In this document: positions 17,784 to 62,842 of the stretch, one piece after another
How positions within the stretch are numbered: position 1 is the first letter of the stretch
Layout: each line of letters starts with the position of its first letter
Virus genome (UHGV): UHGV-1366123
DNA from: a virus
Strand: one strand, 5' to 3'
Length of the DNA: 64,000 bases
The notes under the pieces: model-generated
Told to the model about the DNA's origin: nothing
Seen by the model: only the letters and a program-made list of their open reading frames with translations
Database searches by the model: none
Program-made: the position numbers and the translations under genes

Positions 17784-17871
17784 AGACGTAGTGAGAGGTT
17801 TCGCTCCTCTGAATATCTTCATCAAGAAGCACTACGTTTGATAAAAAGGTGGCGAGTTGTCCATACTCTTC

Positions 17872-17944
17872 TCAGTCTGGTAGGATTCGAACCTACATCA
17901 TCTAAGAACCACCTTATAGGAATTTCCGATTATTCTACAGACTG
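17872..17944 (-). tRNA. tRNA-like sequence with canonical acceptor, D and T arms but a non-canonical anticodon arm (probable pseudo-tRNA)
   Basis: T arm GTAGG-TTCGAAT-CCTAC, acceptor CAGTCTG/CAGACTG, D stem GAAT/ATTC; no 5-bp stem with 7-nt loop can be drawn in the anticodon region. Confidence 0.4.
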
Positions 17945-18310
17945 AACAACAAACGATAATGAAGATTCAAAATGCTGAATATCTGCAAATCGGAAACTAT
18001 GATTGATTCATCTTTTAGACAGCTATGGACAATACCGAATGGGGTATCAAACCAGTAACTTGAAGATTTTTATAGATTGCTGTAAGTCCATAATCTAAAA
18101 GACGTTTTTTCTATCTTTTTCGTCGAAATCTTTACTGCAGACGTTATCTATGAGCCAATTATGAAGATTCTGTTTGCTGTGTGTCTACAGATCCCGACAT
18201 TAAGAATTCTTTAAAAGAACGCTTTGTGAATGATGACTTCCCAGTGGACTACGTAGTTTTAGGAGCAATTGCATAGTAATTTGCTGTGAATCCAATAGAT
18301 CATCATTTTG

Positions 18311-19340: not shown

Positions 19341-20294
19341 TCATTTAGTCGTAGTTTGTTTCTTCTTGATGATCATTCTAAAATAAGTCTGCTCGCCATT
19401 CACAGACAAATATTTCCCGTCGTTTCCCCTTCTGGATGTCACAATCTCAAATTGTTGAGGATTGAATTTATACAAGAATGTTATCGGAACCCCCATGCAA
19501 CCATTGTAATCTCGTGGTATATCCTTGACCCTATCGACATTTATACCATCATAATTGTCGTATTTGGGATATTCATGTTCGTGTCCATAGTAGTTTTTTG
19601 TAAGCGGAATATCTTCATGTCGCATAGAGTGGTTCAAATTCGTAAACCACAGACAATTATTGGTGGGCGTGATCATATTACCAGATTCGTCCATCCATGT
19701 TTTTTTCATGTAGGGTTCATAATGGGCTGGTATGATAAACCCAGAAAATTCGTTCCCACGATTTACACCAAGCCATGCCTTACCATCTTGAACGGATTTG
19801 AAGATTTCTTTGTTGGTGATAGAATTGATATTCCCAATAATGAGAAAGAGCTTATCGTATCTGATCAGTTGTGTCATATATTCACGGAACAACGAAAATG
19901 GTGGATTTGTAACAACTATGTCAGATTGTTCCAGCAAATCGATACTTTCTTGACTACGAAAGTCGCCATCACCATTGAAGTAAACAACATCAGCTGTCTT
20001 TGGATCTGTATCGACGAGTTCTGTCCCTGTGTATTCAAAGAAAAAACCACGACTGTTTTCCTTATAACAAGATGCAATCACCTTCCGAAGTCCCAATTCT
20101 TTGAAATTGGAAACGAAGTATTTGAAAAAGTTACTCGTCAGAGGATCATCACAATTGCAATACACAACTTTCCCTTTAAAATGGCTTTCATAATGTCGCA
20201 ATTCTCTTTCGATATCAATAAGTTGCGTATAGAACTCGTCGTTCTTTTGCTTTCTAGCATTACGAAGTAACTTGCTGGTTGTTGCCCTTGCCAT
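19341..20294 (-). CDS. N6-adenine DNA methyltransferase, EcoRI-methylase family (orphan)
   Basis: N-terminus MARATTSKLL..KNDEFYTQ..VVYCNCDDP..SNFFKYF..LGL.K.IASCY closely parallels M.EcoRI; motif IV IVVTNPPF present; no restriction enzyme gene adjacent. Confidence 0.8.
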   Translation of the reverse strand: MARATTSKLLRNARKQKNDEFYTQLIDIERELRHYESHFKGKVVYCNCDDPLTSNFFKYFVSNFKELGLRKVIASCYKENSRGFFFEYTGTELVDTDPKTADVVYFNGDGDFRSQESIDLLEQSDIVVTNPPFSLFREYMTQLIRYDKLFLIIGNINSITNKEIFKSVQDGKAWLGVNRGNEFSGFIIPAHYEPYMKKTWMDESGNMITPTNNCLWFTNLNHSMRHEDIPLTKNYYGHEHEYPKYDNYDGINVDRVKDIPRDYNGCMGVPITFLYKFNPQQFEIVTSRRGNDGKYLSVNGEQTYFRMIIKKKQTTTK

Positions 20295-20419: not shown

Positions 20420-20595
20420 GTAGAAGCCTTATCGTATGTGAAAAATCTGCGTTTTATCCAGTTCTCACTTCTTGTTTCAACCTGCCATTACTTTTTAGGA
20501 ACACGAGGTTCGGTCATCCATAAGAGGGCAGTCCGCAAGCGTAAATTCGGTGCTACGAACACCTACTCGATTTTTTATATGTTAGACAGTTTGAA
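20420..20595 (-). ncRNA. Putative TnpB omega-RNA (reRNA) scaffold region at and beyond the 3' end of tnpB
   Basis: Inferred from IS200/IS605 biology; locally GC-rich, structured segment (GGAACACGAGGTTCGGTCATCC...GGTGCTACGAACACC) immediately 3' of the tnpB stop. Confidence 0.35.
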
Positions 20596-21724
20596 GTTTT
20601 CTTTGTCCTTCAATGAGAATGTTCTTCGAAGCGTTTATATCTCTGTCGTGATATTCACCACATTCGGGACAAGTCCAAAACCTATCACCGAGTTTCAAGT
20701 CTTTCTTCTTGTAACCACAACATAAACAAGTCTTTGAACTTGGATAGAACCTATTGATAAGAACAACTCGCTTATCATTCATAAGAGCCTTATATTGCAA
20801 TATCGACTTGAACCGATAAAATCCAGACTCTTGGATAGCATTCGCAAGATAACGATTTCCAAGCATCCCTTTAATATTCAAGTCTTCCATGAACACCACG
20901 TCGTATGATTTGAGGATCTCGTTCACAACTGAGTGGATGTAGTTCTCTTTCTTGTTCGTTATATTCGCAATCACTTTTGCAAGTCTGATTCTCTGTTTGT
21001 TCCTATTGTTTGAACCTTTGACCTTTCTGGATAGTTGACGATGAAGTCTTGTGATCTTCTTTTCCTCCTTCTTGAAGAAGTGTTTGTTTTCAAACACAAA
21101 TCCATCAGAGGTTATGACGAAATCTTTCACACCAAGATCAATACCGACTTGCTTGTTGGTCTTTTCAAACTTTACAAATTCTGCTTCGGGAATGTCGATA
21201 AGGATTGATAAGAAGAAATTCCCACTCTTGGTTTTCGAGAGAGTTGCACTTCTTATGTTATCTTTGTACTTCTGTAAGCGTTTGTGATACAAGTCAGAAC
21301 AACGGAATCTGAGTTTTTGAAGAGAAGTGATTAGTGTTATATGTTTCGTTTCGAAAGTGTTCCTCTTTGAAATAGCATTACGAGGAAACAATGCTGATTG
21401 TTTGTCTTTCTTTGATTTAAACTTTGGAAAGCCTTTATGATGATTGAAGAAGTTTTGATAAGCACCGACCATCTGTTTGATTGCTTGGTTCATCACCTTT
21501 GTGTTCTGTTCTCTCAACCAAGCATATTGTTCATCTTTCAACAATGATCCGTGGAAATATTTCGATAGATCGCTTTCGCTTAGGTTTGTCTTGTCCGTTT
21601 CATAAGCCTTTTGTTTTCTATCGAGCATGTGATTATAGACAAAACGATAAGCACCAAGAACCTTGTTGAGTTCTTGTTCCTGCGCTTTGTTTGGATATAA
21701 CCTTATTTTAATCGCTCTAAACAT
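20582..21724 (-). mobile_element. tnpB: TnpB (IS200/IS605 OrfB-family RNA-guided nuclease), intact, no tnpA present
   Basis: N-terminal IRLYPNKAQ..YRFVYNH; RuvC-I GIDLGVKD, RuvC-II FMEDLNIKGM, zinc finger CLCCG...CPECG, RuvC-III DRDINASKNIL; all catalytic residues present. Confidence 0.8.
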
Positions 21725-21743: not shown

Positions 21744-21968
21744 TTACAGATCTTTTTCTTCTGCTAATATCCTATCGAATTCCAATCTCAGACAGCGAAG
21801 ATAGCCGTTCATGTATTCATACTTAGTCTGCTGGAAGAACTTCTCATCTGGTGTCAACTTCTCAAACTCTAAAGATTGGATGAAATCGAGTTGCTTCAAA
21901 GTGACTTCTTTGAACCTTTCATAGCTCTTTAAAGCTTTCCGTCTCCTCTGTCCAAATTCTTCAAACAT
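21744..21968 (-). CDS. hypothetical protein
   Basis: ORF only. Confidence 0.4.
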   Translation of the reverse strand: MFEEFGQRRRKALKSYERFKEVTLKQLDFIQSLEFEKLTPDEKFFQQTKYEYMNGYLRCLRLEFDRILAEEKDL

Positions 21969-21974
21969 AACCTA

Positions 21975-22187
21975 TTAATCATTAGAGATTTTTGTAACAG
22001 CACCGAACTTCTTCAACTTTTCTGCAAGATCAAGGACATCTTGATCGTTCTCTGATTCATATAGAACTGGTTCATTCTGACGGACAAGTTCCATGGCATA
22101 ACTCAAAGAAATCTTTCGATAATCCATCAAGCACTTTATAACTTGAAGAGGTGCTTGACCTTTGTCTATGAGAATCAGCTTATACAT
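21975..22187 (-). CDS. Ribosomal protein bL12 (L7/L12) C-terminal-domain-like protein, stand-alone 70 aa
   Basis: LILIDKGQAPLQVIKCLMDYRKISLSYAMELVRQNEPVLYESENDQDVLDLAEKLKKFGAVTKI aligns with the bL12 CTD (..[47 protein letters not shown]). Confidence 0.6.
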   Translation of the reverse strand: MYKLILIDKGQAPLQVIKCLMDYRKISLSYAMELVRQNEPVLYESENDQDVLDLAEKLKKFGAVTKISND

Positions 22188-22212: not shown

Positions 22213-22279
22213 TGCTTCGTGAAGGATTCGAACCTTCATCAATTCCGTCGAATCGCTCTGGCCATTGAGCTAACGAAGC
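22213..22279 (-). tRNA. Short (67-nt) tRNA-like element: perfect acceptor, D and T arms, anticodon arm collapsed (pseudo-tRNA)
   Basis: Acceptor GCTTCGT/ACGAAGC, D arm GCTC-AATGGCCA-GAGC, T arm GAAGG-TTCGAAT-CCTTC; only 17 nt between D and T arms. Confidence 0.35.
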
Positions 22280-22481
22280 CCTCATAGATTCCCAGTTTTA
22301 ACGGAAACTGTGGCGGACTATGAACCCCTGCGTGAAACCGCACTTGAACTTCAACCAAGATCTGTACGTACTTTAACCCAAGTGATAGGTTTTGAACCCT
22401 AATTGAAGCAGAACTATTCCCATTCTGAGAGGGGACGTTATCAACTTAAAAATTGGTGAAACGTCCTAAAGTCAACATCGG

Positions 22482-22554
22482 TACGCCATGAAGGATTTGA
22501 ACCTTCGACCGCCAAGGTATAAGCTTGGAACTCTAACCACTGAGTTAATGGCGC
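22482..22554 (-). tRNA. tRNA-Ile (anticodon TAT, decodes AUA)
   Basis: Acceptor GCGCCAT/ATGGCGT, D arm ACTC-AGTGGTT-AGAGT, anticodon stem CCAAG/CTTGG, loop CTTATAC, T arm GAAGG-TTCAAAT-CCTTC. Confidence 0.65.
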
Positions 22555-22589: not shown

Positions 22590-23135
22590 TTAGAACGTTT
22601 TACTGTATCCAAAAACGTCGGAAAGATCTCTCAGAGAATCATTCATAAGTATCTCGTGGACATTGTTGTAAACCGTACCAAGAAGATTCGATCCTCTCCA
22701 TTTCGATTTATCAACTATACGAATATCAGTTTCAGAAAGTCCACATCCCCAGATTTTGTCATAAGGACTGGCTTCTACAAACTCATAACCTTCATTAATT
22801 AGTTGTGTGTAGTGATCTCTGATTTTCTTTGAAGATCTTAGTTTCATCAGTACCACAAAGAGCATCACATCATATCTGACAGATGACCAACGACCATCAT
22901 TGTAGTTTCGAACAAGTCTTCCAAGCTCTTTACAAAAACGTGGGTTATCAGAATTCTTGAGGATCTGCATTGCGATATCTTCGTCTCCGAAGTACTTTGC
23001 TTTCAAGAACATGAACAATGATTCACCGCAATGGAAAACAAGACCATTATAGTTGATCTCGGATTTATAGAAGTTGCTGTAAAAATCCGAACCAGTGAAG
23101 AAAGTCACCAATTTATGATCTTTGAAAATCTTCAT
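22590..23135 (-). CDS. NADAR-domain protein (YbiA/DUF1768 family; ADP-ribose N-glycosidase-like)
   Basis: FFTGSDFYSNFY ... GESLFMFLKAKYF ... RWSSVRYDVMLFVVLMKLRS ... LINEGYEFVEASPYDKIWGCG matches YbiA blocks (F-SNF, SEHYFQAQKF, W..V...VM...L..KF, LL.T....LVE.S..D..WG.G). Confidence 0.75.
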   Translation of the reverse strand: MKIFKDHKLVTFFTGSDFYSNFYKSEINYNGLVFHCGESLFMFLKAKYFGDEDIAMQILKNSDNPRFCKELGRLVRNYNDGRWSSVRYDVMLFVVLMKLRSSKKIRDHYTQLINEGYEFVEASPYDKIWGCGLSETDIRIVDKSKWRGSNLLGTVYNNVHEILMNDSLRDLSDVFGYSKTF

Positions 23136-23157
23136 CGTGTCTCTTGTTCTTTTTTTG

Positions 23158-23230
23158 TGATTCCAGTGGGGCTTGAACCCACAACCCCTGCATTAAAAGT
23201 GCAGTGCTCTACCTGTTGAGCTATGAAATC
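23158..23230 (-). tRNA. tRNA-Lys (anticodon TTT)
   Basis: Acceptor GATTTCA/TGGAATC, D arm GCTC-AACAGGTA-GAGC, anticodon stem CTGCA/TGCAG, loop CTTTTAA, T arm GTGGG-TTCAAGC-CCCAC. Confidence 0.7.
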
Positions 23231-23370
23231 TAAACCATTGTTCTAAGCGAATCTCTTCAAGTGAATGATTAATCGCTTCGGTATTCTTATTGTGAATGTC
23301 AAGATATTAGTTTCAATGATAGTTACCAACAGCTATTGGAGATTATCAACAAATATTAGCAGTTCCCATG

Positions 23371-23446
23371 CCAAGAAGACCCCCCCCCGATGAATTGATT
23401 CTTTTTTATCAAAAAGAATCAATTCATCGGGGGGGGGTCTTCTTGG
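23371..23446. repeat. 76-bp perfect palindrome: 36-bp stem (CCAAGAAGA-C9-GATGAATTGATTCTTTTT) around a TATC loop, with C9/G9 homopolymer tracts
   Basis: seen in sequence; every position pairs. Confidence 0.9.
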
Positions 23447-23464
23447 AGATTATCGTTTATGGGT

Positions 23465-23520
23465 GAAGATTGAAGATTGAAGATTGAAGATTGAAGATTG
23501 AAGATTGAAGATTGGCTTCC
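23465..23520. repeat. Microsatellite (GAAGATT)x8
   Basis: seen in sequence. Confidence 0.95.
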
Positions 23521-23573
23521 GCATATTGAAGAAATGTGTTAAAGTGTATTATCAACTGATACGCTTTAAAGGA

Positions 23574-23657
23574 AGGTATTTTCCTTGCGCTCTGAGAGGT
23601 TCAAGAATATGAAAATAGCGGAGAATAGATCAGAGCGCAAGGAAAGTACCAAGGAAA
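23574..23657. repeat. MITE-like hairpin element copy (TIRs GGAAGGTATTTTCCTTGCGCTCTGA / TCAGAGCGCAAGGAAAGTACC; loop carries GAAAATAGCGGAG core)
   Basis: seen in sequence. Confidence 0.7.
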
Positions 23658-24060
23658 GCCAAGGAGACATATCCTTTGGAATGATGGGTTTCTGTCGGGA
23701 GACAATGACTATTTCCAAGGATTATGAGAAGACTATGACAATAATGGAGGACAATGGAAGATTATCAATGACTTGAAAGACAATGGTTGGAAAATGACTG
23801 ATTTTTAGAGGATTATCAGAGGACTATCTTTTGGAAAATGGTTGGTGATTATCGAATTAAAGGAAGGTACTTTCCTTGTCCTCGAAGCTATTCGAGAATA
23901 TGAAAATAGCGGAGACCATACTCGAGTTCAAGGAAAGTACCAAGGAAATCCAAGGAGACATATTTTCGAGGATTATGGTCTCTGTGGCTAATGGGAGGAA
24001 TATCTTGGAAAGAGAATATCAGTTTAAAGGTGTTAAAAGGTGTTAATCTGTTCGGGGATT
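23640..24060. repeat. Left iteron array: GACAATG / TGACAAT / GACTATGACAAT repeats (reverse complement of the right arrays)
   Basis: seen in sequence. Confidence 0.7.
23867..23941. repeat. MITE-like hairpin element copy
   Basis: TTAAAGGAAGGTACTTTCCTTG ... CAAGGAAAGTACC; loop GAGAATATGAAAATAGCGGAGACCATACTCGAG. Confidence 0.7.
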
Positions 24061-24070
24061 TAGTGAAGGT

Positions 24071-24170
24071 CTTTTTTAAAGTTTTACGCATGCGTTTTTT
24101 AAAGTTTTACGTGCGTGCGCTTTTTTTTGGAGTTTCACGCATGCGTTTTTTAAAGTTTCGCAACACGCAC
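24071..24170. repeat. Four tandem ~25-bp repeats TTTTTTAAAGTTTTACGCATGCG (each with a GCATGC or GCGTGC palindromic core); a fifth variant lies at 24376-24405
   Basis: seen in sequence. Confidence 0.85.
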
Positions 24171-24236
24171 CTGGTACTTTTGGTTTAAACTGGAGATTTA
24201 AAAACATGCGCACGACATGTTTCTGCGCTCAATGTA

Positions 24237-24289
24237 TGGTTTGGGGCAGCCTGGCTTGGCACTATCGTGCCAAGGCTGACCCCAAACCA
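24237..24289. repeat. Imperfect 26-bp palindrome TGGTTTGGGGCAGCCTGGCTTGGCAC-TATC-GTGCCAAGGCTGACCCCAAACCA, same TATC centre as the 36-bp palindrome
   Basis: seen in sequence. Confidence 0.8.
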
Positions 24290-24420
24290 GTTGTAAATAC
24301 TTTGTATTTACGATAAAACTGGAAAAAAATAACGCATGCGTATACGGGTATACACGGGAATTCGCGCGTTTTTTCAAAGTTTCGTGTATACGCACGGTTT
24401 GTCGGCAAATTCCGAGATTA

Positions 24421-24720
24421 GTCTGATTATCTTTCAATTTCAGTCTTTCAATTTTCAACTTTCCATTCAAAATCAGTTAACAATTCTTAACAATTCTCTG
24501 TTCTTGGAATGATTATCTTTCAATTTCAATCTTTCAATCTCTCTTTGAATAATCATCCATTGTCTTTCCAAGAATCATAGTCTTTCCAAGAATCATAAAT
24601 ATCTCGGGAATCATCAATGGTCTCTTTCAATTGTTCTGGTCTGTTCTGGGATTAAAAAGACTAATTTTGATTTTCAACTTTCCCTTTCCACAATAAAACC
24701 ATTTAGTGATTGTCTTTTGT
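24421..24720. repeat. AT-rich block of short direct repeats (TCTTTCAAT, TTCAATTTCA, TCTTTCCAAGAATCATA x2)
   Basis: seen in sequence. Confidence 0.7.
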
Positions 24721-24839
24721 CTTCAAAACGATTATCATTAAAGGGGCGGAAATCTATGATTCAGACAAAAGTCATCTTCTATTAACAAATCTTTAGAGAA
24801 TTCTTTCAATCTTTAGAGAAATTTTTCAAAGAGACTATG

Positions 24840-25017
24840 ACTTTTTCTATTGTCTTTGATAATCTTTTCACGATCCTCTATTGTCTTGGTGATTCTTTGA
24901 TGATCAGTCATTGTCTTTGATTATGGTTGATTGTCTTCCATAGTCTTCTGATAATCACTGACAATAGTCATTGTCTTCCGACAATCATACCACCATTCAA
25001 CAGAATACCTCTTCTGA
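24840..25017. repeat. Right iteron array 1: (A/C)(G)TCATTGTCTT(T/C) and GATTGTCTT repeats
   Basis: seen in sequence; three segmental copies follow. Confidence 0.75.
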
Positions 25018-25112
25018 TTACAGGAAGGTACTTTCCTTGCGCTCTGATCCATTTTCCGCTATTTCTATCCCACCGAATGTCTTCGAGGACAAGGAAAGTA
25101 CCTTCCTTTAAT
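25018..25112. repeat. MITE-like hairpin element copy with its loop inverted relative to the 23574 and 23867 copies
   Basis: TTACAGGAAGGTACTTTCCTTGCGCTCTGA ... TTCCGCTATTTC ... CAAGGAAAGTACCTTCCTTTAA. Confidence 0.7.
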
Positions 25113-25159
25113 TCAACCATTCTCAACCATTTTCTGGTAGATCATCTTCATAATCATTC

Positions 25160-25356
25160 AAAGAACCAGTTGTGAAGACGGTCATCATTGTCTTTCCATA
25201 ATCCTTTGATGGTCAGTCATTGTCTTTGATTGTTTTCCATAGTCAGTCATTGTCTTTGATTATGGTCGATTGTCTTTCCATAGTCTTCTCATAATCCTTC
25301 GAAATAGTCATTGTCTCCCGACAGAAACCCATAATCCTCGAGAATATGTCTCCTGA
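25160..25356. repeat. Right iteron array 2 (GTCATTGTCTTTGAT / GATTGTCTTTCCATAGTC units)
   Basis: seen in sequence. Confidence 0.75.
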
Positions 25357-25450
25357 TTACAGGAAGGTACTTTCCTTGAACTCGAGTATGGTCTCCGCTA
25401 TTTTCATATTCTTGAATATCTCAGAGCGCAAGGAAAGTACCTCGTCTTAA
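25357..25450. repeat. MITE-like hairpin element copy; loop is the inverted form of the 23867 copy
   Basis: loop AACTCGAGTATGGTCTCCGCTATTTTCATATTCT is the reverse complement of the 23867-copy loop. Confidence 0.7.
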
Positions 25451-25454
25451 TTAA

Positions 25455-25695
25455 TGAATCAGAACTATTGTCTCTTCATAGTCTTCTGATAATACTTCAA
25501 TAATCGTCCATTGTCTTTCAATAATCAGCCATTGTCTTCCGATTATGGTCGATTGTCTTTGATGATTGTTGATTGTCTTTGATGATTGTTGATTGTCTTC
25601 CATAATCAGTCATTATCTTGGATAGTCTTCCATAATCCTTCGAAATGGTCTATTGTCTTCGGATGATGACCCATAGTCCCCGAGAATACCTCTCC
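25455..25695. repeat. Right iteron array 3, including GATGATTGTTGATTGTCTTT x2
   Basis: seen in sequence. Confidence 0.75.
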
Positions 25696-25699
25696 TTGG

Positions 25700-25792
25700 C
25701 TCTCCTTGGTACTTTCCTTGCATTCTGATACACTTTCCGCTATTTTCATATTCTCGGGCTATTTCGAGGACAAGGAAAGTACCTCTCTTTAA
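25700..25792. repeat. MITE-like hairpin element copy
   Basis: CCTTGGTACTTTCCTTGCATTCTGA ... CAAGGAAAGTACCTCTCTTTAA. Confidence 0.65.
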
Positions 25793-25927
25793 TTCACAAC
25801 TCTGTGACCATTTCTCCAGCCAATTTTCTGATTATTGCTGGAAGGTCAATGTTTGGATACAGATGTGGGGAGAAGAAATCAAACTTCTCCCCACATTCTT
25901 CTTTTTGATTTGTAGGTTTCTTTTCTT

Positions 25928-55270: not shown

Positions 55271-58200
55271 ATGTCTAAAAGATCATCAGCAATTGTTAGA
55301 ACAAACCCATTATTAACTGGTAATATCAAGTTTGTAGTGAAATCAGACGGAGATTTCCAGATTTCCACAATACCAGTTAATGATACATTGTCGAGCATAG
55401 CTTATACGAAACCACTTAGTGTATCATCAGCACCTTTTGATGATATCTCGAAAGTTTTCGCTGATGTTCCGAAGAACATATTCTACGAAGCACCTTCCAA
55501 ACCCGATGGTTATGTCTATGAGAAGTATGCGGACATGGTTGATCAAACCTATCTTTACAAAGTTCAGAGATGTACGTCGATGCTGTACGATGAGGAATTT
55601 TCGATTTTTGCCCCACTTTACATTGGTGAAAAACTTCCGAAATACTTCATCATTTATAAGTCCGATGGAAAGAAGGACAGACTTCGTGACTGTCAAATCT
55701 TGAAGATAATCGATCTCCATAAGTCCCCTATTGGGAAGTATTTCCAAAAACTCACTGATTTCCCACTTTTTAAAAATTCCCACCTACAATGTGACTTTAT
55801 ACAAAAGCATGTCACTTACACTGGGATATCCATCGACAAATCATCAATTGTGCAGATATCCGAATCGATTGAAGACTTTGTGGATGGTGGGAAAAGTGTC
55901 TACGAGTTTGATAAATGGGTCACGGAAGGTTACAAGAGACATTCGCTCGTCTCCCACAAGCTCTTCAACTTCGAGTTCCTTTTTGATGATCCTTCCCGAG
56001 AGATCAAGTATGAGAATTACTTCGGTCTTTATGCCGATGACATAAATCTCACAACCTATCTGTATTCAGACATAAATGATGTCGTAATATCGAAAATACA
56101 AGACAACTTCAAAGATGTCGACCTTTGTCTTATGAAGACTGATGATGCAGTTGTCGATATCAAGAACTTCAAGAAGAAAGATTTCCCACAATACACAACA
56201 ACGAACATTTTCAACATACGCCTTCAAGGAGATGAGGAGCAAGAACCTGCTTACAACGAGATTATCTACGACGCTTCACGTAAGCCGATGATCAACACGT
56301 CGATAAAGATCTTCATTGATGGGAAAGAATCAGAAACGATACTCTCCAACACCCTCTTGAATCTTGAGCAAGGTGACTATGGTTATGAGAAATGGTCTCG
56401 TGATGGTTGGTTCTTGACATATTACAACCCATTCGGATCTAAAGAAGAAGTCCTGCAGAGAATTGCGTCGTGTCTTGAATGGGTCGTTGATGCTCTCCGT
56501 CTGTATGGTGTGAAAGTCTTCGTGGATAATGACCACGACAGAATAATCGTCGAAAACTCAACAAGACCTTCTATTGAGTTCGAGATAACTTCTGCTGATG
56601 GAACACTTTCGCTCTTGTATGAGAAATTCTCAAGAAGTGATAACAACTTCATGATGTCCCATTCTAATGCTCTCAACTGTGTAGACAAGTACGTAAAGAA
56701 TGGGAATCACTTTGAACGTGTCAAGCACGTCAAGAAGAGACGACACGTTGATATGTTCGACATAATCTCGGACACACCAATCTATCAGACAAAGAACGTC
56801 ATACAGGTTTATGATCAGACCGAATTCACCTTGTCCGTCGTGAACTTCATCGATATCTGTGACTTCGACTTTATGATCAAGACAAAGACAAAGAGAAACG
56901 ACATACTCATTGAACTTGAACAATACACTCCCGAAGAACAGAAGACTGATCCCGATCTGTCCAAGTTCCTCGGTTATGATACGATTTCGATTGATGAGAA
57001 GAGACCTCTTGTTTCTCTGCAATCAGTGTGCAAGTGGGTTTCTGAGTTTAAAGATGTCCGTCTGGATGAGTATCGTTTGAATGTATCGGAAGAGTTCGGT
57101 TCGGATAACTTCTCTCCTTCGTTCAACATTTCTTATCCTAATCCGAAGTATTACACCCACGAGTTCTTCCCAATTTCGAGACATCCACTGGTGGAGAAAG
57201 ATGGGAAAATGTCTGCGTATTTCTCTGAACCATTCAACGAACTGAAGTATTGCTTCTCGAGTTATGACTACTTCCAAGAATACTTCACTGTCTTTGGTTA
57301 TAGCTTTAGAGACGGATCGTACTCGAAAACTGATCCTTCTGAAAATTGGTCAATCATTTCGAAGAACAACGTCGGTGACTTCGTTACAATGTTTAGGGGT
57401 GTGCTCATAAGTATCCATTCCAAGAACGATATCGACGGCTACAAGTTCTCCTCGATTCTCAATGTCAATCCTAATGGTCAGTCTTCCATACGCATTGTGA
57501 GAAATAGACGGTTTAAGAGCATTGTTATGATCTGTACCATTTCTTACAATGACTATAAGATATCGAAAAACAATCTCTCCTTCCTCAATCTTTATACAAT
57601 GGGGTCTCAATCCACAAAGTCTAAAGATGGGAAGATAATCGATGGCAACCGTATCGACTTCGAAGGTGTAAGTGGTCTTCTGAAAATTGGTATTGATTCT
57701 TCCAACAATGACACTGTCAAGATGCAGGAATATGACCAGATGTTTGGTATAGAACTCGATATGCGATTTGTCTCTTACACTGATAGTTCTATTGAAATCG
57801 ATGCTATGATCAATGGTAGTCCACGTAAACTTCACGAATGGTACTCATTGAAAGATGATAAAACGTTCATGGAGATAATCGGCATCGAAGAAGATCTGGA
57901 GACTAATAGAAAGAATCTCGTAATGTTCAGATCCTTGAAGTGTGATTCTCTTGGGATTTACCTCAAACACGGATCTCTGACAATCAAAGACTATAACCAC
58001 AATTCGATCGTTATCGGAAAGTCGGTCAAGAAATGGGACAACTCGCACGAATTCTTCACGATTGATGACGGTGTTGTTTACATTGAAGCAAACAAGCCAT
58101 CAATGGAAGCCATCACCACACTTACGCCAAAGTCTCTCGTACAACATATCCAATCGTTAGATCCTAAGAAGAAGTCTTTGAAGTGGTATCTCGTCGGTGG

Positions 58201-59017
58201 TGGTAAAAACTTCCACAATTTCCAACACGAGTTTGTCAACTTCTCTCTTCTTCGTGAGATTGTAGAAAACAACAACTTCTCATATACAGAAGATAGAAGA
58301 CAAGATGACCTACAGTTTAAGTTCCACAGACCTATTGATCTCGGTTCTATGAAGAGGTATGGCGGAAAGTATGATCCAAAGATCAGTAAACTATCGACTG
58401 CTATCAATCCGAAAGTCTCTTCTATGATCGACCATTATCGAATGTCTTATAATGACTCTAAGGACACGTTCGACAAGACGATCAATTACGATATTCGAAA
58501 GGAGAATACTGCATTTGTGCTCGGAGATATCCGAATCCCAGAGTTCGTATACAACGACCATAAGTCATTAAAGGTCACAAGTCTCCCACTTTTTGGCGAC
58601 ACGTCTATCCCTTATGACAAATCTAAGCACTTTGCAGATTTCACGAGTATGTTCTCATCGAAGATCCTCAACTTGCCCAATTCGTTCGAGATAACTGTTG
58701 GGAAGTGGAATGTTGATGATCAAGGGAACTATTCTTCCGAGATTAACCTCATCGATTCTTTCTTGGAAAAGTTCAAGCAGGAGATGATTGATGCCGTTGA
58801 TCATCTTGGTACAATCGATGATCCTCGTGTCTATGTGGAAGAATATTGTAAGAAGAATATCGGAATGCTCTACAAGATCTCGGATTCGAAGATGCTCTCA
58901 AATGGTGAAGTCGTCAAAGATTTCTCAATTTCTCTCGATCAGAACGTCATAAAGATTCATCACCATACGATAGAAAATGTTCATCTTGAGATGACCATTT
59001 CCGTGGGTCTTGTGTAA
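55271..59017 (+). CDS. Large virion structural protein (1248 aa; baseplate wedge or fibre-like)
   Basis: size, late promoter; no enzymatic motifs. Confidence 0.5.
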   Translation: MSKRSSAIVRTNPLLTGNIKFVVKSDGDFQISTIPVNDTLSSIAYTKPLSVSSAPFDDISKVFADVPKNIFYEAPSKPDGYVYEKYADMVDQTYLYKVQRCTSMLYDEEFSIFAPLYIGEKLPKYFIIYKSDGKKDRLRDCQILKIIDLHKSPIGKYFQKLTDFPLFKNSHLQCDFIQKHVTYTGISIDKSSIVQISESIEDFVDGGKSVYEFDKWVTEGYKRHSLVSHKLFNFEFLFDDPSREIKYENYFGLYADDINLTTYLYSDINDVVISKIQDNFKDVDLCLMKTDDAVVDIKNFKKKDFPQYTTTNIFNIRLQGDEEQEPAYNEIIYDASRKPMINTSIKIFIDGKESETILSNTLLNLEQGDYGYEKWSRDGWFLTYYNPFGSKEEVLQRIASCLEWVVDALRLYGVKVFVDNDHDRIIVENSTRPSIEFEITSADGTLSLLYEKFSRSDNNFMMSHSNALNCVDKYVKNGNHFERVKHVKKRRHVDMFDIISDTPIYQTKNVIQVYDQTEFTLSVVNFIDICDFDFMIKTKTKRNDILIELEQYTPEEQKTDPDLSKFLGYDTISIDEKRPLVSLQSVCKWVSEFKDVRLDEYRLNVSEEFGSDNFSPSFNISYPNPKYYTHEFFPISRHPLVEKDGKMSAYFSEPFNELKYCFSSYDYFQEYFTVFGYSFRDGSYSKTDPSENWSIISKNNVGDFVTMFRGVLISIHSKNDIDGYKFSSILNVNPNGQSSIRIVRNRRFKSIVMICTISYNDYKISKNNLSFLNLYTMGSQSTKSKDGKIIDGNRIDFEGVSGLLKIGIDSSNNDTVKMQEYDQMFGIELDMRFVSYTDSSIEIDAMINGSPRKLHEWYSLKDDKTFMEIIGIEEDLETNRKNLVMFRSLKCDSLGIYLKHGSLTIKDYNHNSIVIGKSVKKWDNSHEFFTIDDGVVYIEANKPSMEAITTLTPKSLVQHIQSLDPKKKSLKWYLVGGGKNFHNFQHEFVNFSLLREIVENNNFSYTEDRRQDDLQFKFHRPIDLGSMKRYGGKYDPKISKLSTAINPKVSSMIDHYRMSYNDSKDTFDKTINYDIRKENTAFVLGDIRIPEFVYNDHKSLKVTSLPLFGDTSIPYDKSKHFADFTSMFSSKILNLPNSFEITVGKWNVDDQGNYSSEINLIDSFLEKFKQEMIDAVDHLGTIDDPRVYVEEYCKKNIGMLYKISDSKMLSNGEVVKDFSISLDQNVIKIHHHTIENVHLEMTISVGLV

Positions 59018-59059: not shown

Positions 59060-62000
59060 ATGGGAAAATATAGCGGAACTGACATCCAAGATATGACACT
59101 GTTCAGCATAGAACAAGACGATTCTGTACTGAATCTTGTAGAAAAACTGAACCACAACTTTGATCAGATACTCAGGCATGAAAGAACTGATCTTGTTGAT
59201 TTCATGACTACTTTGATCCTTAGAAACATAGCAGATGGGAAATATTCCGAAATTCTCGGTGCTGAAGGGTCTCGTATAAAGATGATCGGTAAACCTGGGC
59301 GTGATGGTAGCGATGGGCGTGATGGGAACACTGTGGTACAAGCATCACAGTCCGTCAAGTTCCTACAGATGAACACCAGTGATCTTCGTGAAATACAGTA
59401 CAATTCATACTCGATTTCTATTCCTAACACACCAGAAAAGGAAAATGAAAGAATCGAACTTCTGAAGTATCGTGTGGGTGATGTTATATTCACGAAAAAT
59501 GGTGACCTGCTTACTGTCGAATCGGTGACTGATTCTGAGATATTTGTTACAAGAAAGATAAACTACTCAGCACTGAGCGGAGGTGGTGGTGGTGGAGGAA
59601 CATCACCAGGCACTGGAGGAGGTGGAAGTGGATCAACTGGCGGAGGTGGATCTGCTTTCCATATAAACACCGATATTGAAAACTCTACAGTCCGTGACCA
59701 TATTTTACAAACTGCCGATCGTATACTTCTTGGTCAGTTCATTCCTTCATCTGGGGAATCGAATAACAGCACGAGATATTACAGATTTGGTCTTGGTATT
59801 GGGAAGCATGCTTATGGAGATCCAACTCTGGCCATTGCAAACATACCACAGACTTTAACTGCAGATGCTAATGCTGTCGATTCTGATATAAAGGATCAAG
59901 TAAGGTTGTACTTCCGTAAGAATTCCCAGCAATCGTTCGACTTTGTAAGTCCACGTCATTGGGCATCGGCCAGATATGTTGATCTTTACGAGAACGACAA
60001 ATCGAAGGGACTAGTAACTGGTCAACGTCTTCGTCTCTCTCTTGAGAACAGTGATGGTGAAGATACTAACCAACCATTCATAGAACTTCTCACTAACAAG
60101 AGAACAAGCGATTCTCATTCTACGATTTCCACGCATACCTTATCAGTAATTGATCGCCACAACAAGAGGGCAGTCGTTATTGATAATCGTCAGCGGTTTG
60201 TTATAAAGTCCATGATTGCCGATTTCTCAAAGTCTATCCTTTACACGAACGAGAGAAATGATGTCTTGGCAACCGAATATGAAACGTTCTCTGCCCCATC
60301 TATCAAGACCAACACGATCTCTCCTAACAGTGGAACTATGGTTTCCATTGGATCTGGGAATGGACTCTCGGCAGATATCCTCAAAACGAAGAAGTTACAA
60401 GGTGTCAGTGGTGCAATGTCACTTTCTGACAACACTGTTCTGACTGTTGATGCGGGAAGTGATATCCGCATCGGTGACACTTACATTCGTCAGTGGATTT
60501 CTGATACTAATTCAAAAGTTGGTGAACTTGATAGAAAGAGTATAAAATCGAACACTCTCTTCTCAGATATCTTCGTCGATGTTCGAGAGCAGAAGTTAGA
60601 TCTCCGTACTCTTGGGTTTGGTCTGTTCTCTCCGTCTGATGGTAAGAACATGACGATCTCCACCAACACTCTTCAAAAGACTGGTGAAGGGACTTCGTCG
60701 AACATCTACGTTTCGACATTCATCAAGGGTGATGCTGGTGTGTTCCATAACAAATACTCTCCTATTCACAGGTTGTTCGGTGTGTTTGCTATTGGTGACA
60801 CTGACGTTCTTGCAGATACTCATTATGATACCTCTGAAAGTGATAAAAACACGCTCATTGGTATGGGTGCTTGGGGACATGGAAAGTTCGCATCTTCACA
60901 ATCGGTAAGTGTTGAATCAGTCAAATCCAAGAAGATTGCAGATTATGAAGACTACGTGAAGATACCTGCTTTCAATCTTAGTGGTGGTAGCATTGACTAT
61001 TCTACGATAACGTTCCCTTCTCAAAACAAAGACGAAGGTTGGAAGAAAGCAGGTAACGTTATCGTGATGAAGCCATCGACGAACCTCATCAGTCAATCTG
61101 AGAAGTACGTTTTCGAATCTGAGAAGAAGGTGAAGACGTACTACGTGAAGTTGCACAATGAGATCTATGATGACACACGTGACACACGTAAACCGATAGG
61201 TTTCAAAGTTCAAGACGGTTGGTCATGTTTCGAATACGATATCAATGATGTCTCAACTTATCAGAAGACGATATTCGACAAGGTGAGAGTAGATGTCAGT
61301 GATCAAACGAAGAATCACATCGCAGGTAATCGTAGAGGTGCTGGGGTTCCTTATGGTGAAGGTAACATTTTCTCGACCATTATCAACTACGACGCAGAAG
61401 GAAGACCAATAAAGAGAAAACCTGGTGGGAATTCTGCAAACAACTTCATGCTCAATGCGACATCATTTATGGCGTTCATTGGTCATTATCAGATGAAAGG
61501 TCATAGTTCTGAACTACTGGAATATGAAGACATACAACCTGCAGTTTATCAAGACTTTGTACACGAGGTTCAGAGGAATTTCTACTACATGAACGCTATG
61601 GACTTGATAGCAGAAGGTATGAATTCAAACACAAATCCGATAACCTTCGAAAAATTCCAGAGAGTGCTCACGAATGGTGGTACTAAGTGTGAAACGTTCG
61701 ATTCATATATCGAATCAAAACAGAATGGGAGATCGAGGAAGACAGCGTTTGTGTTCTCTCCTATCAAGACGAGATCGATCGTAAAGATGTCACCATTCTC
61801 TGACAGATCTCTCAATCACGTTCCATGTGTTATGACGACATTCATAAAAGATCATAGCGTGACTGATGAATCACAGGAACTCTTGTCAAACGACATGTTC
61901 TCCCTCAAAGTTGTTGGTGATGTTGTTCATATGGACATTTATGTTGAATGTTCAGTGTTGCAGGTGAAGAAACCGAATGTAGACAACTTCTACGCATATC

Positions 62001-62842
62001 AAAGACATGTTTACTCTTCTGGCGCATATGAACCCAACACTGATTCATCAACAGCTTTGAAGACTATTCTCTCCAATACAAGGCTCACGGAATGTTTAAC
62101 TGATGACATTTCATCAAGTCCTATGAGTTTATGGGCAGGGCGTATTCTGTCTAATGCGGAAGGTTATAATGCGGTGTATAAGAAGTCACATGTGCATAAT
62201 ATAAAACTGTCAGATCAAACTCCTTTACAAGAATCGTATGGGTTCTCGATGTCTATGCTGATTCCTTCTGTCTTCATACCAGTGACCGATATCATGTTCT
62301 CTGATAACACAACTCTCTACACGGATGGTATGTGCAGAATATCTGTAACACCATTCAGAGCAGGAAGAAAATCTCTTCAGGGTTCTATGATGAAAGACGC
62401 TATCCCAAATAGAAAAGCGAATATTGATTCAAATCGTCGATTTAACAACGTGGTGTTTGATGATAGACTTGTCGAGTTCAGCGGTTATACATCACTTTAC
62501 AAGAAAGGTGTTGGTTATACACAAGGATACTCTGCCGATTGTGGTTTCGCTCCAAACAAACAATCTTACACCTCGATCGTTGTAGAATTCGAAAATCCTA
62601 ACTACATTGACAAATATTCTCTTTCGTCGAATCTTGTAGAGCCACAGAGCGGTGTGAAGTTCAAGAAGATCTCTCTGACGTGGGTAAAACCTGGTATCTC
62701 AGAAATACTTGAAAGAATGCAGATGTCAGATAGAACAAGAACTGGTGGATTCTCGCTTGATAACGAAATCTCGGTAGAAACCCAGAAGATCTATGGAGAA
62801 GAGATGTACAAGCAGATGCAGAAGTATCTCGATAATGAGTAA
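59060..62842 (+). CDS. Tail-fibre-like protein (1260 aa) with collagen-like Gly-X-Y run and poly-Gly linker
   Basis: GKPGRDGSDGRDGNT collagen-like triplets and SGGGGGGGTSPGTGGGGSGSTGGGGS linker near the N-terminus; late promoter. Confidence 0.55.
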   Translation: MGKYSGTDIQDMTLFSIEQDDSVLNLVEKLNHNFDQILRHERTDLVDFMTTLILRNIADGKYSEILGAEGSRIKMIGKPGRDGSDGRDGNTVVQASQSVKFLQMNTSDLREIQYNSYSISIPNTPEKENERIELLKYRVGDVIFTKNGDLLTVESVTDSEIFVTRKINYSALSGGGGGGGTSPGTGGGGSGSTGGGGSAFHINTDIENSTVRDHILQTADRILLGQFIPSSGESNNSTRYYRFGLGIGKHAYGDPTLAIANIPQTLTADANAVDSDIKDQVRLYFRKNSQQSFDFVSPRHWASARYVDLYENDKSKGLVTGQRLRLSLENSDGEDTNQPFIELLTNKRTSDSHSTISTHTLSVIDRHNKRAVVIDNRQRFVIKSMIADFSKSILYTNERNDVLATEYETFSAPSIKTNTISPNSGTMVSIGSGNGLSADILKTKKLQGVSGAMSLSDNTVLTVDAGSDIRIGDTYIRQWISDTNSKVGELDRKSIKSNTLFSDIFVDVREQKLDLRTLGFGLFSPSDGKNMTISTNTLQKTGEGTSSNIYVSTFIKGDAGVFHNKYSPIHRLFGVFAIGDTDVLADTHYDTSESDKNTLIGMGAWGHGKFASSQSVSVESVKSKKIADYEDYVKIPAFNLSGGSIDYSTITFPSQNKDEGWKKAGNVIVMKPSTNLISQSEKYVFESEKKVKTYYVKLHNEIYDDTRDTRKPIGFKVQDGWSCFEYDINDVSTYQKTIFDKVRVDVSDQTKNHIAGNRRGAGVPYGEGNIFSTIINYDAEGRPIKRKPGGNSANNFMLNATSFMAFIGHYQMKGHSSELLEYEDIQPAVYQDFVHEVQRNFYYMNAMDLIAEGMNSNTNPITFEKFQRVLTNGGTKCETFDSYIESKQNGRSRKTAFVFSPIKTRSIVKMSPFSDRSLNHVPCVMTTFIKDHSVTDESQELLSNDMFSLKVVGDVVHMDIYVECSVLQVKKPNVDNFYAYQRHVYSSGAYEPNTDSSTALKTILSNTRLTECLTDDISSSPMSLWAGRILSNAEGYNAVYKKSHVHNIKLSDQTPLQESYGFSMSMLIPSVFIPVTDIMFSDNTTLYTDGMCRISVTPFRAGRKSLQGSMMKDAIPNRKANIDSNRRFNNVVFDDRLVEFSGYTSLYKKGVGYTQGYSADCGFAPNKQSYTSIVVEFENPNYIDKYSLSSNLVEPQSGVKFKKISLTWVKPGISEILERMQMSDRTRTGGFSLDNEISVETQKIYGEEMYKQMQKYLDNE

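Follow-up and report, generated by a model that had tools for sequence, protein, structure and literature searches.

A stand-alone homologue of the bL12 C-terminal domain with a rebuilt factor-binding face and a predicted helical-hairpin partner in an oral phage

The 64,000-nucleotide (nt) stretch of the virus genome UHGV-1366123 analysed here (the whole of it is called the window below) contains an open reading frame (ORF) of 70 codons, ORF70, whose product is, with high confidence, a free-standing homologue of the C-terminal domain (CTD) from ribosomal stalk protein bL12. ORF70 is followed at once by ORF74, a gene for a 74-amino acid (aa) protein predicted to form a helical hairpin. In the explanation we prefer, and to which we give a probability of about 0.5, ORF70 would be a stalk head of host origin whose binding face has been rebuilt. 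Together with the ORF74 hairpin it would serve, in the tRNA/translation module of the phage, as a two-part adaptor or modulator that acts on host translation. The protein sequence of ORF70 is MYKLILIDKGQAPLQVIKCLMDYRKISLSYAMELVRQNEPVLYESENDQDVLDLAEKLKKFGAVTKISND.

When ORF70 was compared on its own, the resemblance to bL12 was borderline. The Pfam family PF00542 (Ribosomal_L12) matched it with an E-value of 0.0016 and 19.2 bits, the gathering score being 25.9, in an alignment of ORF70 residues 4-67 with profile positions 3-66 of 67. A phmmer search of the PDB with ORF70 placed bL12 chains at the top with an E-value of 0.15. Such single-sequence scores indicate that the bL12 alignment is real, yet not significant from ORF70 alone. 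Two divergent family members, P0087 and P0089, exceed the gathering score of PF00542 (27.6 and 28.1 bits, respectively). As judged from these profile scores, membership in PF00542 holds for the ORF70 family and not for the single window sequence. A profile built from nine sequences that span the diversity of the family (A2) gave bL12 as the top 12 matches in the PDB, with a best E-value of 2.2e-5; the alignments were full-length, and for most chains, that of E. coli included, they were ungapped. A profile of the narrow family (A1) reached an E-value of only 0.43 against bL12 in the PDB, and the signal rose only once the divergent members were added. By hhalign, the A2 profile aligned to a Bacteroides bL12, recovered from genome contigs, with a probability of 96.3% and an E-value of 2e-9 over bL12 residues 59-124, which correspond to the CTD.

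The structure of ORF70 was modelled by AlphaFold2 with family sequences only and without templates. The model has a predicted local distance difference test (pLDDT) score of 91.4 and a beta-alpha-alpha-beta-alpha-beta topology (beta1, residues 2-8; alpha, 13-24; alpha, 28-36; beta2, 41-45; alpha, 48-60; beta3, 64-69). In a Foldseek search the E. coli L7/L12 CTD (1ctf) came first, with template-modelling (TM) scores of 0.86/0.88, a root-mean-square deviation (rmsd) of 1.5 Å and 25% identity. Further bL12 structures followed, and the top chains from E. coli, T. maritima and M. tuberculosis had TM scores of 0.83-0.88. The full-length alignment with the bL12 CTD that the first-pass annotation had read from the single sequence is therefore borne out at the family level by Pfam, the PDB profile search, hhalign and the AlphaFold2 model, and the predicted structure, superposed on the bL12 CTD, adopts its fold.

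The same annotation had described ORF70 as free-standing, without the N-terminal domain by which bL12 binds uL10. We agree, and the hinge is absent as well. M1 of ORF70 lies opposite E53/F54 of E. coli bL12, the in-frame sequence upstream of it contains stop codons, and a tRNA-like gene lies 26 nt away. The Pfam family of the bL12 N-terminal domain matched neither ORF70 nor ORF74. The gene is located in a phage genome and not in an rplJ-rplL(-rpoBC) operon. Variants of 89-90 aa (P0009, P0039, P0044, P0061 and P0067) carry an N-terminal extension of about 20 residues, which in P0061 reads MTEVRILHEALSKKIDNNKQ. We rejected these as gene-calling artefacts because the extension arises when the upstream tRNA-like gene is translated through its T-arm and acceptor stem, where the window has stops in this frame.

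ORF70 belongs to a compact family of about 90 relatives. Among 5.8 billion proteins, a word-indexed search picked out 85 homologue clusters with 73-100% identity, nearly all of them 70-72 aa long and many on phage contigs of 146-151 kb; divergent members have 46-58% identity, and the contigs of the family as a whole are human-oral phage contigs of about 147-151 kb. The identical protein is present in metagenome assemblies from the human mouth. When 1.84 billion representatives were searched exhaustively by HMMER with a profile of the family, only 11 matches came back at E <= 0.001, and a second, word-indexed profile search added two more members, which suggests that, at the sensitivity used, the family is confined to one group of phages of about 150 kb. 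We conclude that it is restricted to one clade of oral, probably Bacteroidota-infecting phages of that size. In tblastn searches of 50,697 phage records, neither ORF70 nor ORF74 found anything, even at an E-value of 1; ORF70 had no PHROG match at all, and neither protein had a significant one in PHROG or NCBIfam. Among the predicted viral structures of BFVD, a family member 80% identical to ORF70 is titled '50S ribosomal protein L11 [Ackermannviridae sp.]'. The L11 name, borne also by one family member in NR, is a mislabel. BFVD also holds several phage proteins named 'bL12 C-terminal domain-containing'. Pairwise ratios of nonsynonymous to synonymous substitution rates (dN/dS; Nei-Gojobori, pairs with unsaturated dS) were 0.07-0.28 for ORF70, which indicates purifying selection; conservation in related phages, a check that the first-pass annotation had proposed, was found.

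The alpha4-alpha5 face of the bL12 CTD engages EF-G, EF-Tu, IF2 and RF3, and the motif around the EF-G contacts, from K65 to R73 and beyond, is a hallmark of the domain. The EF-G contacts are V66-V68, K70, L80 and E82 (PMC5887453). We derived a Bacteroidales bL12 consensus, which includes the stretch GLGLKEAK, from 80 genome loci, 72 of which gave a full-length bL12 (115-135 aa), nearly all from Bacteroidales; the window protein in the region compared reads MYKLILIDKGQAPLQVIKCLMDYRKISLSYAMELVRQNEP…. At bL12 positions 66, 67, 68, 70 and 80, ORF70 has L, Q, V, K and L, the Bacteroidales state, so that of the six EF-G-contact residues five agree with Bacteroidales bL12. L66 and Q67, which differ from the V and A of E. 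coli, hint at a Bacteroidota origin of ORF70. The charged rim around these positions is different. K65, K/R73, G79, K81 and K84 of bL12 are lost in the ORF70 family and appear as P, M, S, S and M, respectively. Along the two helices the replaced positions are themselves conserved: at the equivalents of bL12 K65, A67, K70, A71, R73, G74, K81 and K84 the family has, with hardly any variation, P, Q, K, C, M, D, S and M, respectively. Mean column entropy in the phage family is 0.45 over residues 10-37 (alpha4-loop-alpha5) and 0.73 over residues 38-68. By these column statistics, the alpha4/alpha5 face is the most constrained part of the phage protein and is chemically rebuilt with a different charged rim. 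Retention of the hydrophobic patch and of K70 in the host-specific form would make a translational GTPase or other stalk client the likeliest class of partner.

The ATG of ORF74 lies 6 nt past the ORF70 stop (junction …AAT GAT TAA TAG GTT ATG…), and in the window, L001-L005 and L009 alike the two genes are paired across an equally tight junction. ORF74 has a dN/dS of 0.08-0.09 by the Nei-Gojobori method and is thus under purifying selection as well. Its AlphaFold2 model (pLDDT 93) is an antiparallel helical hairpin with helices at residues 2-30 and 40-73, for which a fold search returned generic helical hairpins only (best E-value 0.44). Pfam gave no match to ORF74, PHROG a weak one (phrog_774, E 0.017) and NCBIfam only noise. 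We considered whether ORF74 is a homologue of the bL12 N-terminal domain and ruled this out, the hhalign probability being 0.2%.

The two proteins are joined in a sister lineage whose genomes are of comparable size. P0088, found on three contigs, is a 193-aa fusion with an ORF70-like domain at residues 1-67, an ORF74-like region at 108-171 and between them a linker of about 38 residues rich in S, A, P and E. Its C-terminal region is 36% identical to ORF74 (E 2e-13), and in a tblastn search of the window P0088 gave a single colinear high-scoring segment pair that spans both ORFs (E 1.9e-27). Two MAFFT alignments that included the fusion were unusable, since the first half of ORF74 was placed beneath the bL12-like domain in them. 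We take P0088 as a Rosetta-stone fusion and as the best available evidence that ORF70 and ORF74 cooperate. The first-pass annotation had stated that ORF70 cannot join the stalk; this overlooks the translationally coupled ORF74, fused to the head in one lineage, which could supply a tether.

The surroundings of the gene pair are listed in Table 1. The head gene lies directly downstream of, or between, tRNA genes in six of six lineages (the window, L003, L005, L006, L007 and L009), and tRNA-Lys precedes the ORF70 module in L003, L005, L006 and L007 as it does in the window. The tRNA-like gene nearest to ORF70 has an anticodon loop of 4 nt, compared with 9 in the model, and was not called by ARAGORN; its orthologue in L005 was called as tRNA-Gln(ctg) of 68 nt. 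The gene in the window could be a tRNA that is degenerate or of an unusual kind, and it is probably in one transcription unit with ORF70. Placement in a tRNA cluster fits a translation-related role. ORF70 had also been placed between TnpB and the tRNA genes. The tRNA genes do adjoin it; on the other side ORF74 intervenes before TnpB, and TnpB is not a conserved neighbour. In L003 and L004 a T4_Y16D-family gene (3787-4065 in L003) stands in its place, and in L005 (1741-2883) TnpB is broken into ORFs of 109 and 269 aa. TnpB beside the module is a lineage-specific, incidental insertion.

Table 1. Genes and sequence elements of the window discussed in the text
Feature	Coordinates	Strand	Remarks
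Atypical tRNA	17871-17945	minus	ARAGORN assigns no identity, two-base 'anticodon' (gg); Rfam 42 bits; same phage cluster
EcoRI-type adenine methyltransferase	19341-20294	minus	E 2e-116
TnpB (IS605 OrfB / Cas12f-like)	20582..21724	minus	ORF call and Pfam
ORF74	21744..21968	minus	74-aa helical-hairpin gene, same frame as ORF70
ORF70	21975..22187	minus	ATG start, 70 codons; stand-alone bL12 CTD homologue
tRNA-like gene	22213..22279	minus	Rfam tRNA 56.3 bits; ends 26 nt before ORF70 ATG
tRNA-Ile (UAU)	22480..22554	minus	ARAGORN; Rfam 68.3 bits
NADAR-domain protein	22590-23135	minus	E 1e-31
tRNA-Lys (UUU)	23157..23230	minus	ARAGORN; Rfam 71.4 bits; upstream member of tRNA/NADAR/ORF70 block
11-mer AAATAACGAAA	6314, 13605(-), 13652, 40373, 45567(-), 51180, 55247	gene-oriented	candidate phage promoter or leader motif

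A NADAR ORF lies a few hundred bases upstream of the head gene in the window, L001, L003-L005 and L009. Together, NADAR and the EcoRI-type methyltransferase, which flank the tRNA/ORF70 block, make the region look like an accessory or counter-defence island. A protein of the Sequestin family (PF21825) is encoded a few kb downstream of the bL12-like gene in L006 (11178-11666) and L007 (9203-9691). The window is clearly phage DNA: genes elsewhere in it include those for the head maturation protease and the major head protein, together with genes for a UvsX-like recombinase, for an SbcC-like protein, for a helicase and for an NAD-dependent ligase. None of its 45 long ORFs has a Shine-Dalgarno-like motif; the leaders are A-rich and the GC content is 40%. 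The closest relatives of its capsid are mostly from phages of Flavobacterium, Tenacibaculum, Chryseobacterium and Prevotella (Lak). From the missing Shine-Dalgarno motifs, the A-rich leaders and the capsid relatives we conclude that the host is very probably a member of the Bacteroidota.

Genes with a bL12 domain have been described in phages before, in Ralstonia phage RSB3 (ORF10), N4-like roseophages and Salmonella phages FSL SP-058/076 (Mizuno et al. 2019, PMC6375957). There the domain is sometimes the whole protein (98 aa in RSB3) and more often part of a larger one; it was acquired repeatedly, is under purifying selection, and its function was given as unknown (PMC6375957). One such protein was found in 70S preparations, and a tagged one failed as a means of ribosome purification (PMC6375957). 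To call ORF70 an unusual phage factor, as the first-pass annotation did, was thus an overstatement, since phage bL12-domain proteins, whole-protein ones included, were reported in 2019 (PMC6375957). The phenomenon is already known, and the ORF70 family itself was deposited earlier and never analysed. What is new is the complete CTD with an eroded signature, the coupled or fused hairpin partner, the constant residence in a tRNA cluster and the confinement to a single clade of oral phages.

The Mizuno proteins, together with Streptomyces phage Anedea gp3 and the crAss-like cr126_1, resemble ORF70 in being phage-borne PF00542 domains without an N-terminal domain, reportedly under purifying selection and in some cases nearly stand-alone. 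Unlike ORF70, whose signature is eroded, they keep GLK[ED]AKD[LI]V and have 30-50% identity to cellular bL12. The published phage domains are stated to keep the residues that contact uL11, EF-G and EF-Tu (PMC6375957), whereas the ORF70 family retains these only in part. RSB3 and Streptomyces phage Anedea mainly keep the beta1-alpha4-alpha5 half of the domain, whereas the ORF70 family has the whole fold and has lost the signature; the dedicated hairpin partner or fusion and the tRNA-cluster site also set it apart from the known phage proteins. We examined a special kinship with the crAss-like protein cr126_1 QOR59567, which shares M73 and S79, and rejected it because the hhalign match (E 0.002) extends over 34 columns only.

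The nearest cellular proteins in sequence are bacterial bL12s of the Bacteroidales rplL type. They share with ORF70 the fold, the buried core, G62 and L66/Q67/V68/K70/L80, but identity is only 25-34%, ORF70 lacks both the hinge and the N-terminal domain that serves dimerisation and uL10 binding, and the exposed K65, R/K73, G79, K81, E82 and K84 are replaced. The non-family hits of the exhaustive search were P0090 and P0092 and three cellular carriers of bL12 CTDs. Unlike ORF70, the latter (P0091, P0093 and P0094) have two tandem CTDs that keep GLKEAKDLV (Pfam 92-126 bits), joined to a signal-peptide-like N-terminus in P0091, an N-terminal zinc ribbon in P0093 and a TIR module in P0094. These tandem CTDs show that the stalk head is reused outside the ribosome in cells, possibly in defence-type proteins. 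An off-stalk precedent for a bL12 homologue is mitochondrial MRPL12, which in free form binds the phage-type RNA polymerase POLRMT. MRPL12 differs from ORF70 in that it is full-length, N-terminal domain included, and belongs to a eukaryotic organelle, and a link to RNA polymerase was not found in the 64-kb window.

These observations are consistent with the following history and mode of action. A CTD would have been captured long ago, most likely from the rplL of a Bacteroidota-type host, stripped of N-terminal domain and hinge and then remodelled. ORF70 and ORF74 make up a two-gene unit, which the sister lineage encodes as a single polypeptide. The head would bind a protein partner through its alpha4/alpha5 face, most likely one of the translational GTPases or some other stalk client, and the hairpin would oligomerise or dock the complex. 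The binding would be of an altered kind; the loss of E82 and of four lysines means that it cannot be canonical. In this way the pair may tune host translation during infection, and would do so other than as a stoichiometric GTPase sponge.

Several points weigh against this explanation. Position 82, an E in every cellular bL12 compared, is Y in the window and I, F, Y, D, E or L across the family, and with an entropy of 1.69 the column is among the most variable of the phage family. K70 is changed to N in two lineages. The bL12 signature is eroded to ISLSYAMELV in ORF70, where only buried residues are left, and the canonical motif LK[ED][AS]KD[LI]V that the family has lost is retained by RSB3 ORF10, Anedea gp3, cr126_1 and the cellular P0093 and P0094. 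The L007/L008 lineage has a head gene and no detectable ORF74, so that the head gene is able to persist alone. The tRNA context is only circumstantial because phage tRNA clusters gather unrelated small ORFs. Finally, physical contact between ORF70 and ORF74 is deduced from the fusion and gene adjacency, and the links of ORF70 to a GTPase or the ribosome are likewise inferred.

The same facts have been, or may be, read in other ways. The first-pass annotation had suggested a decoy, in which the free head binds EF-G, EF-Tu, IF2 or RF3 as stalk-bound bL12 does and titrates them from ribosomes. Homology to the factor-binding CTD, the hydrophobic patch with K70 in the host-like form L-Q-V-x-K...L and the high conservation of the alpha4-alpha5 face within the family all speak for such a role. 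They have to be set against the loss of E82, the position being unconstrained, and the change of the basic residues 65, 73, 81 and 84 to P, M, S and M. Individual contacts between the CTD and the factors are weak and short-lived; for a monomeric decoy to work, either its concentration would have to be very high or it would need a new interface of high affinity. Moreover, a decoy has no need of a dedicated hairpin partner, and the conserved ORF74 and the fusion are left unexplained. For these reasons we disfavour the decoy and consider it unlikely. Literature searches turned up no free bL12 CTD characterised as a decoy or as an anti-defence protein. We are slightly less reluctant about a role outside translation, in which the CTD scaffold was retargeted to another host or phage protein, for instance a component of a defence system or a protease, with ORF74 as co-subunit; this also is a tentative alternative. 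Replacement of the exposed signature residues by others that are strongly conserved suggests a new specificity, and the accessory or anti-defence neighbours (NADAR, the EcoRI-type methylase and TnpB, with T4_Y16D in relatives), the occurrence of the domain in cellular non-ribosomal proteins fused to TIR or a zinc ribbon, and the fold shared with the adaptor ClpS would all be in keeping with it. However, at five of the six EF-G-contact positions ORF70 still has the residue of the probable host's bL12, the gene is always within a tRNA cluster, and the searches, with PHROG and NCBIfam giving no significant match to either ORF, point to no alternative partner.

The pair may also be seen as a substitute for bL12 itself. 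ORF70 and ORF74 might be a split, circularly permuted mimic of the bL12 dimer, in which the hairpins form a four-helix bundle that displays two re-specified heads and is possibly docked on uL10 or else on some machine of the phage or the host, P0088 being the single-chain version; we regard this as improbable. If it were true, the phage would remodel or counterfeit the stalk, biasing factor recruitment to its own translation or intercepting stalk-dependent toxins or defence effectors. A stricter version, that ORF74 replaces the bL12 N-terminal domain, dimerises, docks on uL10 and displays ORF70 heads on host ribosomes as an alternative stalk subunit that alters the recruitment of factors, is more doubtful still. 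The fusion has the three-part layout of bL12 (head, flexible linker and hairpin) in permuted order, and a phage bL12-domain protein was detected in 70S preparations by Mizuno et al. Yet ORF74 does not resemble the bL12 N-terminal domain in sequence, its fold finds only generic helical hairpins, the window proteins are separate chains with the linker absent, and ORF74 is dispensable in one lineage. That ORF70 is a spurious ORF or a ClpS-type N-degron adaptor we hold to be a negligible prospect. The single-sequence Pfam score below the gathering threshold could be read as a sign of the former. Strong purifying selection and the approximately 90 homologues argue against it. ClpS, of which phage homologues exist, is like ORF70 a small stand-alone adaptor with a related alpha/beta fold, and it is the second-best structural class for the ORF70 model (TM about 0.75, rmsd 2.3-2.5 Å, 15% identity). 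The bL12 structures fit better in TM score, rmsd (1.3-1.5 Å) and identity, ORF70 is about 10-15 residues shorter than ClpS cores, and Pfam gave no ClpS match at E <= 1.

Some other features of the window were recorded in the course of this work. The 11-mer AAATAACGAAA occurs in seven copies against 0.14 expected, each oriented with a gene and placed about 10-25 nt upstream of its start, which makes the 11-mer a candidate phage promoter or leader motif. A scan for sigma-70 promoters and terminators showed no enrichment and was probably uninformative for a Bacteroidota host. The segment at 23200-25900 (about 2.6 kb) is poor in ORFs and dense in repeats: the 7-nt unit TGAAGAT is present in about eight copies at 23450-23525, and units of about 10 nt of the type 'TTGATTGTCTT' build higher-order repeats of about 320-340 nt in families of 3-9 copies. 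The segment may be an iteron-bearing origin of replication, or else an array with a regulatory role. Two giant adjacent ORFs on the plus strand, 55271-59017 (1248 aa) and 59060-62842 (1260 aa), have no Pfam or PHROG matches.

The ribosomal stalk head is the shared landing site of the translational GTPases. The ORF70 family presents a minimal, 70-residue, head-only form of it, with a defined partner, a natural fusion and a binding face re-engineered by selection, and so lends itself well to the question of how a virus profits from a stalk head off the ribosome. Recruitment of GTPases may be modulated, a surrogate stalk may be built, or the scaffold may be reused for another target. With this family, oral phages that probably infect Bacteroidota join the viruses known to carry fragments of the translation machinery.

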